Shown here one piece after another: positions 23,498 to 30,102 of a stretch of DNA of 64,000 nucleotides (position 1 is the stretch's first letter; each line of letters starts with the position of its first letter). The notes under the pieces are model-generated. The model was not told the DNA's origin and made no database searches. It was given only the letters and a program-made list of their open reading frames with translations. The stretch is from Candidatus Marinacidobacterales bacterium (GTDB lineage: Bacteria; Acidobacteriota; Vicinamibacteria; Marinacidobacterales; DATDRI01): NCBI GenBank assembly GCA_965226495.1, contig OZ245365.1:5088001-5152000 (forward strand), in the 5' to 3' direction. A program made the translations under genes and the position numbers.

Positions 23498-25714
23498 CTA
23501 CTGGATCCGACCTCCTTGCCCGCCGAGTTGGGTACCGAACGATCCAATGTTGGCCAGCGTAATACCAACCCGGAAGAGGTTCTCGTCCCGTACCGTACCG
23601 AAACGGTATCGGGCCCACTCCGCCATGAAGCCGCAACACTGAATGTTGTAGTTGACACCCGCCCGGACGAGATTCAATTCCTCGGTCTCGATGTTGTAGG
23701 CAGACTCGAATCGCACCTGCACGGTGCGTGTAGCGTTCAGGGTGGTGACGCCGCGCAGGTTCCGGCGCTCTCGGCCCGTGGTCAGCTGTACGCTTTGAGC
23801 CAGCGAGCCGCTGACATTGCCCCAGCCACCCCCGTGGCTCCCCACCAAGCTCATCGAGCGCATCCTGTTGAAATTAACGTCATACTCGAAATTCCAGGAA
23901 GCGGCCAGTCGACCGGTAGGACGGAAGCGTAGCTTCGAAGTAATCGGGGAATAGTTGCTGGGAACACCGCCCTCGGTGAAAAAGGGCGTACTGAATTGGC
24001 GATCGTAGAGGCTGGCATCGACCTGGAGAAAATATCTCTGTGCGAGCGTCCAGGTCAGAAACTCGTAGGGGACCGCTTTGTCACTTTGGCCGATTTTGCG
24101 CTTTGCTAGAAATCGATTCACCAGAGAAAAAGAAAACTGGTTGGTACCGGGAACGTAGTCGTTGGAGTCGAACTTGGGGATATCTCCGAAGTTGTCAACC
24201 AGCGAGCGATAGCTCCAAACGAGCTGCGGCTCGATAACGTGCTTGTACTTTTCCGCATATCCGTTACCGGGGGTATTGAAAATGCGGGAAAAGGTCGGTC
24301 CCCGTACGTCGACACGGACCTCGTTGTAAGTTCGGTCCAAAGCATCCCCGATCACTTCTCCAGTCGAGTCAGTTTGCTGTGAGTAGCGCGTGAAGCGCGT
24401 CATGAACGACGTTCGCGCGGTCAGGAAAGGCCAAATATTGAAAGGGTAGGAAATAGTTGGCAGGACGTCGTAACGTTGATAATCGACCAGATCGTCTCGC
24501 ACACTCCGGGAGAACGAAGAAGCGGACGTGCTAAAACCGAACAAGATCGGCGTCGGACCGATCTTCGTTTGCCTACCCTGGAAAGCGACGCGGGGAAGTA
24601 TCTCCCGGAAACTAATACTATCCGTGAAAGACGTCTCGTTGCGATCGTAGAGAAAACGTAAGGTGTAGGCCGACCAGGATCGAGCCACGTTCACGGTGGC
24701 TCGCTTCGAGCGGCGGGTCAAATCTGCGTAGCTCTCCTGGTACGTTTGTTGGAAGGCGAAGGAGCTGAAGTAGTCGACGCGCGCAATCGTCGTGAAGTCG
24801 GCAGGTAGCTGCTGATTGACATTCGCCCTGATCTGCCATTCCTTCTGTTCTAAAACCTTGTCGTCGATGTAGTAGGATTCGAAGCGACCTCGCGACGCTC
24901 CGCTGAGCAGGTAGCGATACTCGGTTCCAAGCCCCACCCCACTTTGGGAAAACCAATCGACATTGATGGTCGCATCGTGGGAGCGGTTGATGGCCCAGAA
25001 GAAACCCTGGCTGACCATGAAACCCTTGAAGGTAGAGTTTCCTATTTGGGGAAGCATGAGGCCCGTCGATCGGTCTTTGTCATTGATGGGGTAGTAGAGA
25101 TACGGCACATAGAAGACCGGTACCGACTTCACCTTGAGAAACGCGCCGTGGAGGGAAACGTGGTGGTCGCGACGGATGGTGGCCTTTCCGGAGGTGAATC
25201 GCCAGCGAGGCGTCGGCTGCGCGCAAGACGTGAAAGCTCCTCGTTCCACGACGTAGACATCCTCCGAAATTTTCTCCACCACGTCACCCTGAAAGTAGAG
25301 ATCGTTGCCCGAGCTTCCATAGGCGTTATAGAACTTGCCCGTCCCGGTCTCGAGATCGACTTCCATCCGATCACCGACGATCTTTTGGTCGCCCTGCTGG
25401 AAGACGACGTTGCCTTCCGCGATGACCCGCATCTCCTCGTTCCAGAAATCGACTTTGTCTGCCGAGACACGGATATCTCCCGACACCATGTCCACGTACC
25501 CGGTCGCCCTGACGTGCCCCTTTTCGATCTGCTCTTGCTCATCGGCGTTCAGAGTGACCGACCCGGGTGGGGGAGGAGCCGGTGGTGGAACCTGCTGAGC
25601 CTGTTGAACCTGTTCCGACTCTTGGGTTTGCCGAGAAGCGTCGTCTTCGTCGTTGTTTTGCCCGCCGGCGAGGGGCACCGCGGTTAAAAGAAAGACAATA
25701 GTCAGTCTCAACAT
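23498..25714 (-). CDS. lptD: LPS-assembly protein LptD
   Basis: Signal peptide, OstA-like jellyroll, FTSC..P.P.W, RSTGL..P, beta-barrel with YNIQCC near the C-terminus. Confidence 0.9.
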   Translation of the reverse strand: MLRLTIVFLLTAVPLAGGQNNDEDDASRQTQESEQVQQAQQVPPPAPPPPGSVTLNADEQEQIEKGHVRATGYVDMVSGDIRVSADKVDFWNEEMRVIAEGNVVFQQGDQKIVGDRMEVDLETGTGKFYNAYGSSGNDLYFQGDVVEKISEDVYVVERGAFTSCAQPTPRWRFTSGKATIRRDHHVSLHGAFLKVKSVPVFYVPYLYYPINDKDRSTGLMLPQIGNSTFKGFMVSQGFFWAINRSHDATINVDWFSQSGVGLGTEYRYLLSGASRGRFESYYIDDKVLEQKEWQIRANVNQQLPADFTTIARVDYFSSFAFQQTYQESYADLTRRSKRATVNVARSWSAYTLRFLYDRNETSFTDSISFREILPRVAFQGRQTKIGPTPILFGFSTSASSFSRSVRDDLVDYQRYDVLPTISYPFNIWPFLTARTSFMTRFTRYSQQTDSTGEVIGDALDRTYNEVRVDVRGPTFSRIFNTPGNGYAEKYKHVIEPQLVWSYRSLVDNFGDIPKFDSNDYVPGTNQFSFSLVNRFLAKRKIGQSDKAVPYEFLTWTLAQRYFLQVDASLYDRQFSTPFFTEGGVPSNYSPITSKLRFRPTGRLAASWNFEYDVNFNRMRSMSLVGSHGGGWGNVSGSLAQSVQLTTGRERRNLRGVTTLNATRTVQVRFESAYNIETEELNLVRAGVNYNIQCCGFMAEWARYRFGTVRDENLFRVGITLANIGSFGTQLGGQGGRIQ

Positions 25715-25892
25715 CGAGCGAGACCCGATCTCGACCCCCCTTAATCCTTTTGGACCAACGCATTATGCATCGGGGGCCCGGTTTTTTCCAGGCCCAGTTT
25801 CTTTATCATCCCTTAACTGTCACCCTCAGAATGACATACACTCTTGCTGGCGCTTTGAATGCCGACACGTCATGCTTATGGGCGTCGGGAGA

Positions 25893-27377
25893 ATGACAGT
25901 TACAGTGGAAAAGACAGAGGTCTTGCTCGTTTCGTGTTACGAGCTTGGGCACCAGCCTATGGGGCTTGCCAGTCCTATGGCGTTTCTTGCACGAGCGGGA
26001 TTTCCGGTCACCGCGGTCGACATCTCCGTCGACCCTCTCGAGAAGTTGGACGAGAACCTCATCCGTCGGGCTCGGCTTGTCGCGATTTCCGTCCCCATGC
26101 ACACTGCCCTGCGTTTAGGCTCACGCGTCGCGGAGCGAATCCGCGAAATGAACCCGCGCTGCCATGTTTGTTTTTACGGATTGTACGCCACTCTGAATCG
26201 CGATTACCTCATACGGAACGGGGTGGACTCTATTTTGGGAGGAGAGTCCGAGCAATCTTTGGTACGCCTCGCGGAAGCCCTTGCCAAAAACAGCAACACC
26301 CTCCCAACCTTCTCCGGGCCGGTACTGGAGCGCCTTCGATTCCCGGTGCCGCTACGTCGAGGCCTCCCACCACTCGAAAAGTACGCCCACTTGGAGCGCG
26401 AAGGAGGCCATGGCCCGGTCGGCTACGTCGAAGCTAGTCGTGGATGCCTGCATCATTGCTTGCACTGTCCGATCCCGCCGGTTTACCAAGGTCGTTTCTT
26501 CGTCGTACCCAAGGAGATCGTGCACGCCGACATTCGCCAACTCGTCGAATCAGGAGCCACCCACATCACATTCGGGGATCCCGATTTTTTGAACGGACCG
26601 GGGCATTCACTGGCGGTTGCTCGTGCTCTTCACGAAGAGTTTCCCGAGCTCACCTTCGACTTCACGGCGAAAGTGGAGCACATTTTGAAACACCGAGCCC
26701 TTTTGCCGGAGCTCCGCAACCAAGGCTGTATCTTCGTCGTGTCGGCCATCGAATCTCTCAGCGACCACGTACTGAATCAGATCGACAAAGGACACACGCG
26801 CCAAGATGCCAACGAAGCGGTGAGCGCTCTCCGACGCACCGGGATCGCGCCGCGCCCGACTTGGGTCTCGTTCACACCTTGGACGACTCTCCGGGACTAC
26901 ATTGACGTCCTCGAGTGGGTGGACGAGGAGGGGCTCGTCGGTCACGTCGACCCCGTACAATTCACGGTCCGTCTACTGGTTCCCCCGGGCTCCTTACTGC
27001 TGGAGAGAGGAGCGATTCAACCCTTCTTGGAACCACTCGTGCCGGAGTCGTTTACTTATCCGTGGAGACACCCCGACCCTAGGATGGATCTCCTCCACGC
27101 TCGAGTCAGCAAGCTCGTCGAGAAATCCGCTTCGGATGACGAGGACCCTTTTGAGACTTTTTCACGCATCCACGACCTGGCTTGGTCCGAGCTGGAAACG
27201 GGAAAACGACCGCCGCTGCTCCGAGATCGGGCCGAGCGTGGAAAGCGCCCTCCCCGACTCACCGAAGCGTGGTTCTGCTGATCAGAGCCCACAGAGGGTC
27301 AGTTGGGCCCAGTCGAGAAATTGAAAAATCCGGGGGTTGAAACCGAAGCGTCGACTTCATATAATGAAGCGGGATAG
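25893..27377 (+). CDS. Radical SAM protein with B12-binding-like N-domain and C-U-S-E-P tail (probable selenoprotein; ends at 27281 if UGA is a true stop)
   Basis: SCYELGHQP N-terminus, EASRGCLHHCLHC (CxxxCxxC), TFGDPDF; in-frame TGA at 27279-27281 in WFC-U-SEPTEGQ; frame continues to TAG at 27375-27377. Confidence 0.85.
27282..27311 (+). promoter_or_regulatory. Putative bacterial SECIS hairpin
   Basis: GCCC/GGGC lower stem, AC/GU and GA/UC upper pairs, GGG apical loop, immediately 3' of the UGA. Confidence 0.6.
27337..27369 (+). promoter_or_regulatory. Sigma70 promoter for the nfu gene with overlapping palindrome
   Basis: TTGAAA(27337-42)-17 nt-TATAAT(27360-65); inverted repeat CTTCAT-ATA-ATGAAG (27355-69). 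Confidence 0.75.
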
Positions 27378-27388
27378 GAGAGCATGAG

Positions 27389-27985
27389 ATGAGCGAAGAC
27401 CTCAAGATCACCTGCGAGCCAAAGGATACGGAGAGCTGTAGCTTCGTCCTCGACCGACCCGTCTACGAAGGAGGCTCCGCGTACTTTGGCGACCAAGACC
27501 GAGCCAGTGGCTCTCCGTTACCCGAAAAACTCTTTGCGCTGGACGGCGTCAAGACGGTGCTGGTGCAGGACAACAAAGTGACCATCACCGCGGAAGGCAT
27601 CGGCGACGATTGGCTTCCGTTGGCCAAGCAAGTGGGTGCGACCATTCGCAGCGTGCTCCAATCGGGCGAGAAACCCATCTCCGACTCCCTGCTCAACTCC
27701 ATGCCTGCGTCCGAGCAGATCAAGAAGACGATCGAAGAGCTCTTCATTCGGGAGATCAACCCCTCCATTGCCGCGCATGGCGGTTTCGTGGAGGTGCTAG
27801 ACGTGAAGGGGAACGAGGTCTATATTCGTCTTGGAGGTGGGTGCCAAGGTTGCGGGATGGCGGACGTCACACTCAAACAGGGGATAGAAACGTCCATCCG
27901 CAAGGCGGTGCCCCAGATCGGAGCCATCATGGACACGACCGACCACGCGGCGGGAAGAAACCCCTACTACGCGCCCTCCAAGTAG
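27389..27985 (+). CDS. NifU/Nfu-family Fe-S cluster carrier (Nfu_N plus NifU_C)
   Basis: SPL..KLF.LDGV..V, INP.IA.HGG.V, GGGCQGCGMA.VTLKQGIE, DHAAG.NPYY; AGGAG RBS. Confidence 0.92.
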   Translation: MSEDLKITCEPKDTESCSFVLDRPVYEGGSAYFGDQDRASGSPLPEKLFALDGVKTVLVQDNKVTITAEGIGDDWLPLAKQVGATIRSVLQSGEKPISDSLLNSMPASEQIKKTIEELFIREINPSIAAHGGFVEVLDVKGNEVYIRLGGGCQGCGMADVTLKQGIETSIRKAVPQIGAIMDTTDHAAGRNPYYAPSK

Positions 27986-28069: not shown

Positions 28070-28202
28070 TCGTCACCCAATCAAACGTGGCTGCAACCAA
28101 CCCTTACAGCCTAAAAATATAGCCTTTTTTTGCGGCTTTTCTTGGCGTACGAAGTACTGGTGTGTGCTTAACCGCTACTTCGAGATGACGGAGTCCACCT
28201 TG

Positions 28203-28877
28203 ATGCAACAGATGGCTATTAAGGTCGTTTGGTTCTGCACGAGCTCGAGCAACCCCAACGAGCAGAGCTCTGCCAATCTCGATGCCTTGAATTTCCTGCG
28301 CGCCCTCAAGGGGGAGCGCATCGAGGGGGAAGCAACTATCCCCATCGCCGGGCAAAACCGGCGTCTCAGCAATTCCAACCTGGATGAGGCGATCGACTGG
28401 TTCGGCGAAATGGTCGCCAGCTATTTCCAACGTCAGGGTTTAGATCCGCCGTTTTACCTGGTTCCCATTCCGGACACCAACACGACGGTGGAATCGAGTA
28501 CCGGCCCCTGGACGTCCTTGACCGCAATGGCTATTGCCTCCAAGCTCGAAGGTGATGTGGAAGCTCTAGACGTTCTTCGCTGGAAAAAGAACCTCTCCTA
28601 CCTCAGTGCGGAGACGCAGGATGCCACTCGGCTATACGAGAACCTAGCCCTGCTCGGAAAAACCCAATGGGATAAACCGGTAGTGCTGGTGGACTACCTG
28701 GCGGCCAACGCGGCGCGAGCCCAGGCCTGCGAGGCGTTCTTGAGGGCGAACGGCGCTCGCGTCCTGCTCTGTGTGTTTGCGGGAAGAATCGTCCCCGAGA
28801 AGCCCGAGAAGAACTTTGCGGTCTTTAGAGCCGAAGTCGCAGGAATCAATCCTGTTCCCCCTCGCTCGGCGGACTGA
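28203..28877 (+). CDS. Hypothetical PRTase/ComF-like fold protein with degenerate PRPP loop (start uncertain, 28164-28212)
   Basis: LVPIP, LRWKK, and VVLVDYLAANA where VVLVDDVxTTG is expected. Confidence 0.65.
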   Translation: MQQMAIKVVWFCTSSSNPNEQSSANLDALNFLRALKGERIEGEATIPIAGQNRRLSNSNLDEAIDWFGEMVASYFQRQGLDPPFYLVPIPDTNTTVESSTGPWTSLTAMAIASKLEGDVEALDVLRWKKNLSYLSAETQDATRLYENLALLGKTQWDKPVVLVDYLAANAARAQACEAFLRANGARVLLCVFAGRIVPEKPEKNFAVFRAEVAGINPVPPRSAD

Positions 28878-30102
28878 TGACAAAGTCGAGGCAAGCGGCA
28901 GCCTCTCTGAGAGCGCTCTCAACGGTCGCCGGAGTTTCGCCGCTGGCAAAGATAAAGCCGAGATAACTCGAGCCTTCCGGAAGGGGCACCAACACCTTAC
29001 CGAGATGTGAGGTGATCGTCACGTCTTGAACTCCGGAAACCGCCTCTGCCTCTCTGACTCCCCGAACGCCTTTCAGAACACCTGCCTGTGGGATCGGTAT
29101 CATCATGACACCGGATGCGGCGGACTCGCGGCATAGCGTGCTCACCTCCATCCCCAAGGCGTGCCGAAGGAGCAATTCCTCGAGCGAAAGCCCTACACCG
29201 AATCTAAGCGACCGCGAGCAAAGCCCCCCAATGGATCGCCCGGCGATCTCTATGACCCACACCCCCTTGGAGTTCAATCGAAGCTCGGAGTGGACGGGTC
29301 CCTCTCGAAGCCCCAATGCGGCCGCCGCTTTGGCGGTGGTTGCCGCGATCTCAGATTGGCGTTGCTCGGGCAATCTGGACGGAGTCACGTAAATTGTCTC
29401 TTCGAAAAAAGGTCCCTCTAATGGATCGGGCTTGTCGAAAAGAGCTAGCACTTTGAGCTCCCCTCCGGTCATGACTCCCTCGAGGGCGACCTCGACACCC
29501 GATACGTAATCTTCGACCAACACCTGGCGAGCCAACGGCCCGCCACGACGGGCTAAATCGCGGTCGCCAAGAATCGCTCTCAATCGCTCGAAAGCCGAAA
29601 CGAATTCGCGCTCGCCGTTGGCGCGCATCACACCCCGGCTCGCCGCAAGAAAGACGGGCTTCAAAACACATGGGTAGTCGACGCGGCTCGCCAAATCCTC
29701 TGCGTCATCGGCTATCGCGAAGAGCCGATGGGCGGGAACAAGTACTTCGGCGCGAGAAAGCATTTCCCTCATCACGTGCTTCAAACGGGTCGCGGTGGCT
29801 GCCTGGGGAGAGTTGTGAGCGAGCCCGACCGCCTGCGAGATCGCGGCCGCCACGACTGCAGTGTCTTCGTCGACGGAGACCACCGCCTCGAAGGGGTATT
29901 CTCGATAGAAAGAAAGGGCTTTTTCCGCCGCAGAATCCGGGTCTAGGAAGTCGACGGTAAAGAGCGACCCTGGCTCTCGACTCTCCATCGTGCTGGCCTG
30001 CTCGGAGACGACCACCACGTCCACACCGAGCTTCCGCGCCGCCACCATGAAATCATGGGTGCGGTAGGTGTTGGTGGGCAATAAGAGGAGCACGCGAGGC
30101 AT
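28846..30102 (-). CDS. ATP-grasp domain protein
   Basis: K..MRE.L, YPCVLKP...ASRGV, VEDYVSG.EVALEG, HSELR..IEIAGRSIGG. Confidence 0.92.
   Translation of the reverse strand: MPRVLLLLPTNTYRTHDFMVAARKLGVDVVVVSEQASTMESREPGSLFTVDFLDPDSAAEKALSFYREYPFEAVVSVDEDTAVVAAAISQAVGLAHNSPQAATATRLKHVMREMLSRAEVLVPAHRLFAIADDAEDLASRVDYPCVLKPVFLAASRGVMRANGEREFVSAFERLRAILGDRDLARRGGPLARQVLVEDYVSGVEVALEGVMTGGELKVLALFDKPDPLEGPFFEETIYVTPSRLPEQRQSEIAATTAKAAAALGLREGPVHSELRLNSKGVWVIEIAGRSIGGLCSRSLRFGVGLSLEELLLRHALGMEVSTLCRESAASGVMMIPIPQAGVLKGVRGVREAEAVSGVQDVTITSHLGKVLVPLPEGSSYLGFIFASGETPATVESALREAAACLDFVISPPSEGEQD

Follow-up and report, generated by a model that had tools for sequence, protein, structure and literature searches.

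ArsL is the radical SAM enzyme of arsinothricin biosynthesis and forms the C-As bond in this antibiotic. It splits SAM into MTA and an aminocarboxypropyl (ACP) radical, and it needs its C-terminal cysteines for the binding of As(III) (10.1101/2024.02.01.577332). The same chemistry and the same As(III)-binding tail are given in the accessible parts of two further reports (10.64898/2026.04.29.721666, PMC13598754). The ArsL tail, which is homologous to the one described below, binds no extra cluster (10.1101/2024.02.01.577332), and, according to the accessible part of a review (PMC12931638), AprD4 and ArsL homologs bind no cobalamin. Haft and Gwadz read the CU motifs of HgcA and the SAO proteins as heavy-metal ligands (accessible part of 10.1101/2022.07.06.499078). 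The same accessible text calls the radical SAM family named for its CUAEP/CCAEP tail, NF040546, uncharacterised, and this passing mention was the only one found when the literature was searched for the family names; the original prediction, made from the DNA alone, had likewise assigned the gene studied here to a family without a known reaction. Among the L-amino acid ligases, BL00235 makes Met-Gly and Met-Met (accessible part of PMC6920838).

The window, that is, the whole stretch of 64,000 nucleotides analysed here, from a Candidatus Marinacidobacterales bacterium (contig OZ245365.1), carries an NF040546 gene (Table 1), for which ATG 25893 or GTG 25905 may be the start codon as alternatives to 25872. 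With Sec read as Cys, the product scores 669.1 bits against the NF040546 profile (cut-off 500) and covers profile positions 1-467 of 468, and the predicted membership of the CUAEP/CCAEP-tail family is thus borne out. The second-best NCBIfam family is ArsL, NF040542, at 318.2 bits (cut-off 450), and every other family scores 44 or less. Both sequence hallmarks, CLHHCLHC and WFCUSEP (C-[U/C]-x-E-P), are present. Residues C192, C196, H198 and C199 show no variation across all 58 aligned sequences, and beyond the cluster motif and C469 there is no other invariant Cys in the alignment. Pfam finds a B12-binding-like domain (18-133) and a Radical_SAM domain (187-330). The AlphaFold model has a mean pLDDT of 92.8; its neighbours in a fold search include AprD4, OxsB and MiaB, and the top match is AprD4, despite the Pfam B12-binding match. 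The protein is an ordinary member of NF040546 and, judged from sequence, a real selenoprotein. It shares with the family the CxxxCxHC motif, the W-F-C-U-x-E-P tail and the alternation of Sec and Cys, and differs from it in having Ser instead of Ala after Sec and, through a local insertion of 8 nt, a longer tail. The CUSEP form, pointed out in the original prediction, is a minor variant that is common to a few relatives (L002, L079 and L132) and occurs as CCSEP in P0026 and P0060.

Table 1. Features of the locus, with positions in the window
Feature	Position	Strand	Basis
Radical SAM selenoprotein gene, CUAEP/CCAEP-tail family	25872..27377	+	501 aa, Sec470; NF040546, Pfam and AlphaFold
CxxxCxxC [4Fe-4S] motif CLHHCLHC (C192, C196, C199)	26445..26468	+	Invariance in the alignment
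Cys469-Sec470 codons, TGC TGA	27276..27281 (TGA 27279-27281)	+	C469 invariant; TGA/Cys alternation; aligns with CC of ArsL RCCLKC
Conserved post-Sec tail, SEPTEGQLGPVE	27282..27317	+	xEP[TS]xxQ kept in TGA and Cys relatives; ordered in the model, helix 475-482
Bacterial SECIS hairpin GGGUC-AGUUG-GGCCC	27296..27310	+	Folding and comparison of TGA with Cys loci
8-nt insertion (exact placement ambiguous)	27324..27331	+	Alignment with L002 and L079; gapless in public contigs
Predicted sigma-70-like promoter of nfu, TTGAAA-17-TATAAT, within the tail extension	27337..27365	+	11/12 consensus matches
NfuA-like Fe-S carrier (Nfu_N and NifU domains, CQGC)	27389..27985	+	Pfam PF08712 and PF01106
237-aa ORF	28164..28877	+	No Pfam or NCBIfam hit; Atlas cluster score 0.96, PF00156 on 13% of members
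L-amino-acid-ligase-type ATP-grasp gene, near-obligate partner; Cys295 codon 29218-29220	28846..30102	-	Pfam, structure match, co-occurrence

The sequence around the codon in question reads TGG TTC TGC TGA TCA GAG CCC ACA GAG GGT CAG; with TGA as U, the C-terminus of the protein is LTEAWFCUSEPTEGQLGPVEKLKNPGVETEASTSYNEAG, and the frame stays open for 31 codons past the UGA to TAG 27375-27377, as had been stated. From sequence comparison, this TGA is a Sec codon and not a chance occurrence. Pooled over 189 related loci, of which 180 are readable, the position is occupied by TGA in 124, by TGC/TGT in 56 and by nothing else; the counts are 31 TGA, 33 TGC and 14 TGT in the GTDB loci (78 of 80 readable), 27 TGA and 2 TGC in the phylum sample (29/29 readable), and 66 TGA, 7 TGC/TGT and 7 unreadable in 80 metagenome loci. 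The Sec/Cys alternation that the original prediction gave for this family is found at this very position. The pattern xEP[TS]xxQ persists 3' of the codon in TGA and Cys relatives alike. All four genes for Sec incorporation that the original prediction proposed to look for are present in the source genome, with selA (570 bits), selB (378 bits) and selD (333 bits, with one in-frame TGA) over the cut-off and selC scored as tRNA-Sec at 70.9 bits against 47. Furthermore, a search for selA succeeded in 25/31 genomes that have a TGA enzyme vs 2/19 hand-picked ones that have a Cys enzyme, in assemblies that are incomplete and taxa that are related. The contigs of two public runs, either of which may be the source sample, are identical to the region letter for letter and gapless, and show no sign of an assembly error at the UGA or at the 8-nt insertion. 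The contigs from RNA libraries (runs with small word shares left out) cover parts of the enzyme gene that exclude the UGA and are silent on read-through. The claim that the apparent stop of the radical SAM gene is a Sec codon in a C-U-S-E-P tail is upheld by the TGA/Cys alternation, the conservation past the codon, the sel genes and the tracking of TGA by selA.

Some further selenium loci were observed in the source genome. SelD (G000:C1:5697778-5698710) is itself a selenoprotein (TSAGUASK). At G000:C1:173953-176447 (L001, L203), ARAGORN calls two tRNA-Sec genes, of which Rfam accepts the first only; the second, lying some 2.4 kb downstream, is a repeat of the last two-thirds (3') of selC, which fits a small element integrated into selC, and between the two calls lies a 551-aa ORF that looks like a TolB/TPR-type regulator.

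Downstream of the UGA, where a SECIS is expected in bacteria, a hairpin is indeed present (Table 1). The GGG apical loop that had been described for it was not found, neither among stems of at least 3 pairs whose loop begins within 45 nt of the UGA nor among the 25 suboptimal folds listed. The hairpin has a 5-bp stem and a 5-nt loop, which starts 19 nt past the UGA and has G and then U at loop positions 2-3, and the pair probability of the stem is 0.84-0.85. According to the accessible part of PMC13188914, a bacterial SECIS has a loop of 3-9 nt, a stem of 4-16 bp, a distance of 16-37 nt from the UGA, a G within the first two loop positions, and an MFE of -7.5 or lower; the AGUUG hairpin satisfies this consensus model, and nt 13-40 after the UGA fold at -7.8 kcal/mol. 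The same stretch reaches -7 kcal/mol or lower in 120/122 loci with TGA vs 11/56 with Cys, and the loop G is found in 122/122 vs 37/56. The stem pairs swap G-C for A-U even where the protein changes (EGQFGP vs ESQFGS). When the register is fixed with a 5-nt loop, the hairpin is seen in only 36 of the 65 TGA loci from metagenomes; nearly all of the others form a hairpin shifted by one base with a 4-nt loop. The same geometry, which was set after the loci had been seen and is thus indicative only, occurs, as a background rate, at 43 of the 169,871 TGA triplets of the genome. The whole 67-nt stretch is no more stable than its shuffles (z = +0.43), and the support for the hairpin is therefore comparative and not energetic. 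It is well supported that SelB uses the AGUUG hairpin to place Sec at the UGA, and that the outcome is a radical SAM enzyme with a vicinal Cys-Sec close to the C-terminus, or Cys-Cys where the organism lacks Sec.

The alternative is that the UGA is a true stop and that the protein ends at WFC. The ordinary stability of the 67-nt region would agree with it, as would the 37 of 150 database representatives listed that terminate precisely at W[FY]C, but gene calling by stop codons would truncate entries at this very place. The strict alternation of TGA with TGY, the conservation beyond the codon, the retention of the hairpin specifically in TGA loci and the tracking of TGA by selA make a true stop extremely unlikely.

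Following the selenocysteine, conservation past the UGA, which had been expected to continue, extends over about 12 codons; the rest of the 31 come from the local insertion. In the two closest relatives (84-89% identity), the stop lies 16 codons after the UGA, and the longer tail in the window arises because the 8-nt insertion shifts the frame past the stop used by the relatives (TGA 27338-27340). The 31-codon tail was accordingly rejected as a functional feature and is a local accident. The extension holds the predicted nfu promoter; the RNA-library contigs over nfu, all from one study, start at 27371 (X16) and 27354 (X17), a weak hint for it. In two other loci, L041 and L054, the stop after a Cys-Cys tail is lost and the enzyme reads on downstream, in L054 into a DUF169 gene; either a fusion or a fault in the assembly could account for this. 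In the model of the window protein, pLDDT is about 70 in the linker 451-460, 84-88 at 461-480 and below 50 at 494-501. Thus, as far as the model goes, the Cys-Sec pair is probably tethered and docked, and followed by a disordered end at 494-501.

A vicinal Cys-Sec or Cys-Cys pair on a peripheral segment is known from the C-terminal arms of thioredoxin reductase and MerA, and Sec in place of Cys is typical of redox sites. The tail could accordingly be a redox arm in the same sense, in which a selenenylsulfide cycle of Cys-Sec reduces a substrate, the cluster or a bound product, and the less confident linker would tether it. However, at least 10 conserved residues follow the pair, the pair itself is predicted to be ordered, the recurring neighbours (read by eye and partly annotated) included no recognisable reductase partner, and the homologous cysteines of ArsL are ligands of the substrate; we regard the redox arm as improbable. 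Of the original suggestion of metal(loid) capture or redox delivery, the capture part gains from the alignment of the pair with the As(III)-binding CC of ArsL. The comparison with a swinging arm is weakened, as the pair does not stand at the very end of the chain, order is predicted for residues 461-480 and no disulfide reductase was recognised among those neighbours.

The relationship to ArsL, which the original prediction did not mention, was seen in several ways. Over 417 aa, the window protein has 38% identity to a protein with the RCCLKC tail, and in the tail alignment the Cys-Sec pair (CC/CU) stands opposite the Cys-Cys of RCCLKC. A quick tree places P0120, a protein with a CCAEP tail, among six ArsL-family rows at an SH-aLRT of 99; this tree could not be rooted, since the branch of the single outgroup is too long, and P0120 is itself a long branch. 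No structure of ArsL was found by sequence or fold search, and the active sites were compared at the level of the alignment.

The ligase gene, a near-obligate partner of the enzyme, is likewise absent from the original prediction. Its product has the domains ATPgrasp_N, ATP-grasp_4 and LAL_C2, all over the Pfam cut-offs, and the nearest structures are the L-amino acid ligases BL00235 (3VOT, E 9e-36) and BacD (4e-15). Cys295, in the RSIGGLC loop after Arg289, is invariant (75/75). Among 251 genomes of the phylum, the enzyme occurs in 41 and a strong ligase ortholog in 45; 40 genomes have both, 1 has the enzyme only, 5 the ligase only (one of them, G073, unpublished), 1 a weak ligase hit, and 204 neither. 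The ligase is thus present in 40/41 genomes with the enzyme vs 5/210 without it, in counts that include related, and hence not independent, genomes. A single ligase ortholog was found in each of the 50 enzyme-bearing genomes searched whole. It lies in the fetched stretch in 36 of the 54 GTDB loci having at least 2.5 kb downstream, namely in 32/32 Cys loci (mostly Nitrospira kin) vs 4/22 TGA loci, and one predicted protein, P0144, fuses it with the enzyme. The enzyme-ligase pair occurs in acidobacteria, Nitrospira, Gemmatimonadota and Rokubacteria. No recurring exporter was recognised near these loci. In Nitrospira loci (e.g. L015:8593-9039, minus strand), a protein of 144-148 aa without a Pfam or NCBIfam hit is encoded convergent to the ligase, in 34 of the 189 loci.

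The genes in the third slot vary. Among the 189 loci, tblastn found Nfu in 50, DUF169 in 47 and a YggX-like gene in 11, with suf genes in a few; clustering of ORFs, for which no gene caller was used, gave noisy groups. C152 and C155 of Nfu are invariant (47/47). Nfu was rejected as an obligate third gene, being present in 12 of 41 enzyme-bearing genomes at E<=1e-30, and from its distribution it appears to be a frequent but replaceable helper. The 237-aa ORF is probably a phosphoribosyltransferase-like insertion between nfu and the ligase gene; it was rejected as part of the module, being found in 1 of 189 loci, and in related contigs, where the ORF is absent, position 27985 is joined directly to 28834. 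A related strain lacking this ORF was observed in two public runs. Divergent from the enzyme gene lies an LptD-like gene (23498-25714, minus strand), whose synteny is local and common to L002 and L079.

These neighbours bear on another possibility, namely that the enzyme uses canonical 5'-deoxyadenosyl radical chemistry on an amino acid or on the dipeptide made by the ligase. The tail would then be a sulfur or selenium donor, through a persulfide, a selenide, an auxiliary metal or an Fe-S cluster, and the product a small dipeptide with a thiol or selenol group, linked to the maintenance of Fe-S clusters or to oxidative stress. The recurring neighbours are iron and Fe-S proteins and not arsenic genes, the ligase has an invariant Cys, and AprD4, OxsB and MiaB are fold neighbours. 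However, the similarity to ArsL, at 318 bits, is far above that to MiaB-type and other families, the homologous ArsL tail binds no extra cluster, and two ligands are few for a cluster. We consider canonical chemistry rather unlikely.

As for arsenic, eight companion genes of ArsL clusters (arsM, arsN, arsR, aquaporin, arsI, arsB, CMD protein and GTPase) were searched for and found in 0 of 189 loci, over 1.45 Mb. ArsM-like genes are barely enriched in genomes with the enzyme (30/41 vs 123/210 without it), and ArsM was rejected on these counts as an obligate partner. Separately, the source genome has an ArsM-like methyltransferase gene with an in-frame TGA in DLWTGUIAG (G000:C1:5785440-5786213, minus strand; L202:1938-2714). 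A clade of homologs about 63% identical, with one TGA each, is spread over roughly a dozen of the phylum's genomes, and the protein is below every NCBIfam cut-off for arsenite methyltransferases.

All three of the ArsL-family plasmid clusters that were opened carry an ATP-grasp gene. The one product compared with the ligase of the window is 26% identical, and all three are without an equivalent of Cys295 (GGD vs GGLC). These RCCLKC clusters, on plasmids of Alicyclobacillus, Pantoea and Priestia (L087, L088 and L089), have the ATP-grasp ligase and a GTPase, and two of them a CMD-family protein. They point to a peptide form of arsinothricin, of which no account was found in the literature searched.

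Our best guess, drawn from sequence comparison and quite possible though short of probable, is that a soft acceptor held by the tail receives ACP from SAM and that the ligase then makes a dipeptide. ACP transfer with dipeptide formation is favoured because of the kinship with ArsL, the use of Met by the closest solved ligase and the resemblance of ACP products to Met. The [4Fe-4S] cluster would cleave SAM at the C-gamma-S bond with release of MTA, as in ArsL, and the Cys-Sec tail, or Cys-Cys in organisms without Sec, would hold the acceptor for the transfer. The partner ATP-grasp enzyme would join the product into a dipeptide, with Cys295 possibly taking the product over from the tail, and the cluster would be kept loaded by one of several interchangeable helpers for Fe or Fe-S, Nfu in the window and a YggX-like or DUF169 protein at other loci. 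An As(III) species such as methylarsenite is unlikely overall as the acceptor, a sulfur or selenium species somewhat less likely again, and another metalloid the least likely of the three. Arsenic in particular is disfavoured by the missing third tail Cys, by the zero hits for the eight companion genes and by the weak enrichment of ArsM-like genes. Against the ArsL-like reading in general stand the score under the ArsL cut-off and the low identity and absent Cys of the ATP-grasp proteins from ArsL-family clusters.

The tail could also serve in the handling or detoxification of an organometal (mercury, antimony or similar), by capturing the metal while the enzyme forms or cleaves its bond to carbon and the ligase conjugates the product. 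The reading of the CU motifs in HgcA and SAO proteins as metal ligands would suit such a role, and one homolog (P0013, a predicted protein) is fused to a MerB-like domain. However, this is the one such fusion among the 150 representatives listed (11 scanned), and none of the recurring neighbours was recognised as a mer gene; the role is about as improbable as that of a redox arm.

If ACP transfer followed by ligation is correct, it may be part of a widespread and so far undescribed pathway, with a second ACP-transferring enzyme, a Cys-Sec clamp, an acceptor other than arsenite, a handover to the ligase Cys and a heteroatom dipeptide as the product, of which arsinothricin synthesis would be a specialised offshoot. 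We offer this wider view tentatively, as doubtful when taken whole. No account of the enzyme-ligase pair was found in the literature searched, with subscription journals and bioRxiv supplements outside the search (the sequence networks in the ArsL supplement could bear on the pair), and the accessible part of PMC8552651 does not mention ATP-grasp. Sec is expected for NF040546, in which database entries are often truncated at the UGA, and the correction of the gene is in itself routine. With ArsL as a characterised sister of unusual chemistry, and with a partner enzyme that is nearly obligate, the reaction of the family can now be tested with two proteins, SAM and ATP. An ACP radical in this family would widen a chemistry reported, in the literature searched, only for ArsL and Dph2, and the metabolite would be made by about one in six of the sampled genomes of the phylum (41/251).

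Compared with known systems, the window protein has the two-domain build of ArsL, and the vicinal Cys pair at the C-terminus is common to both. It differs from ArsL in falling under the NF040542 cut-off, in having about 45 extra residues before the tail and in having Sec. Its tail offers two chalcogen ligands and not CCxxC, the third tail Cys of RCCLKC being absent. Furthermore, the cluster motif has CxHC rather than the CxYC of ArsL, no ars genes are nearby, and the ATP-grasp protein is of a different subfamily. In thioredoxin reductase and MerA the pair lies on an arm, whereas in the window protein it is internal to a conserved tail that is predicted to be ordered. With HgcA and SaoB, SaoC and SaoL (accessible part of 10.1101/2022.07.06.499078), the protein has in common a peripheral segment that bears Cys-Sec or Cys-Cys as a vicinal pair, a likeness in the motif alone. 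The ligase has the same three-domain build as BL00235 and BacD, from which it is distant, and it differs from them in the invariant Cys of the GGLC loop and in being tied to a radical SAM enzyme.
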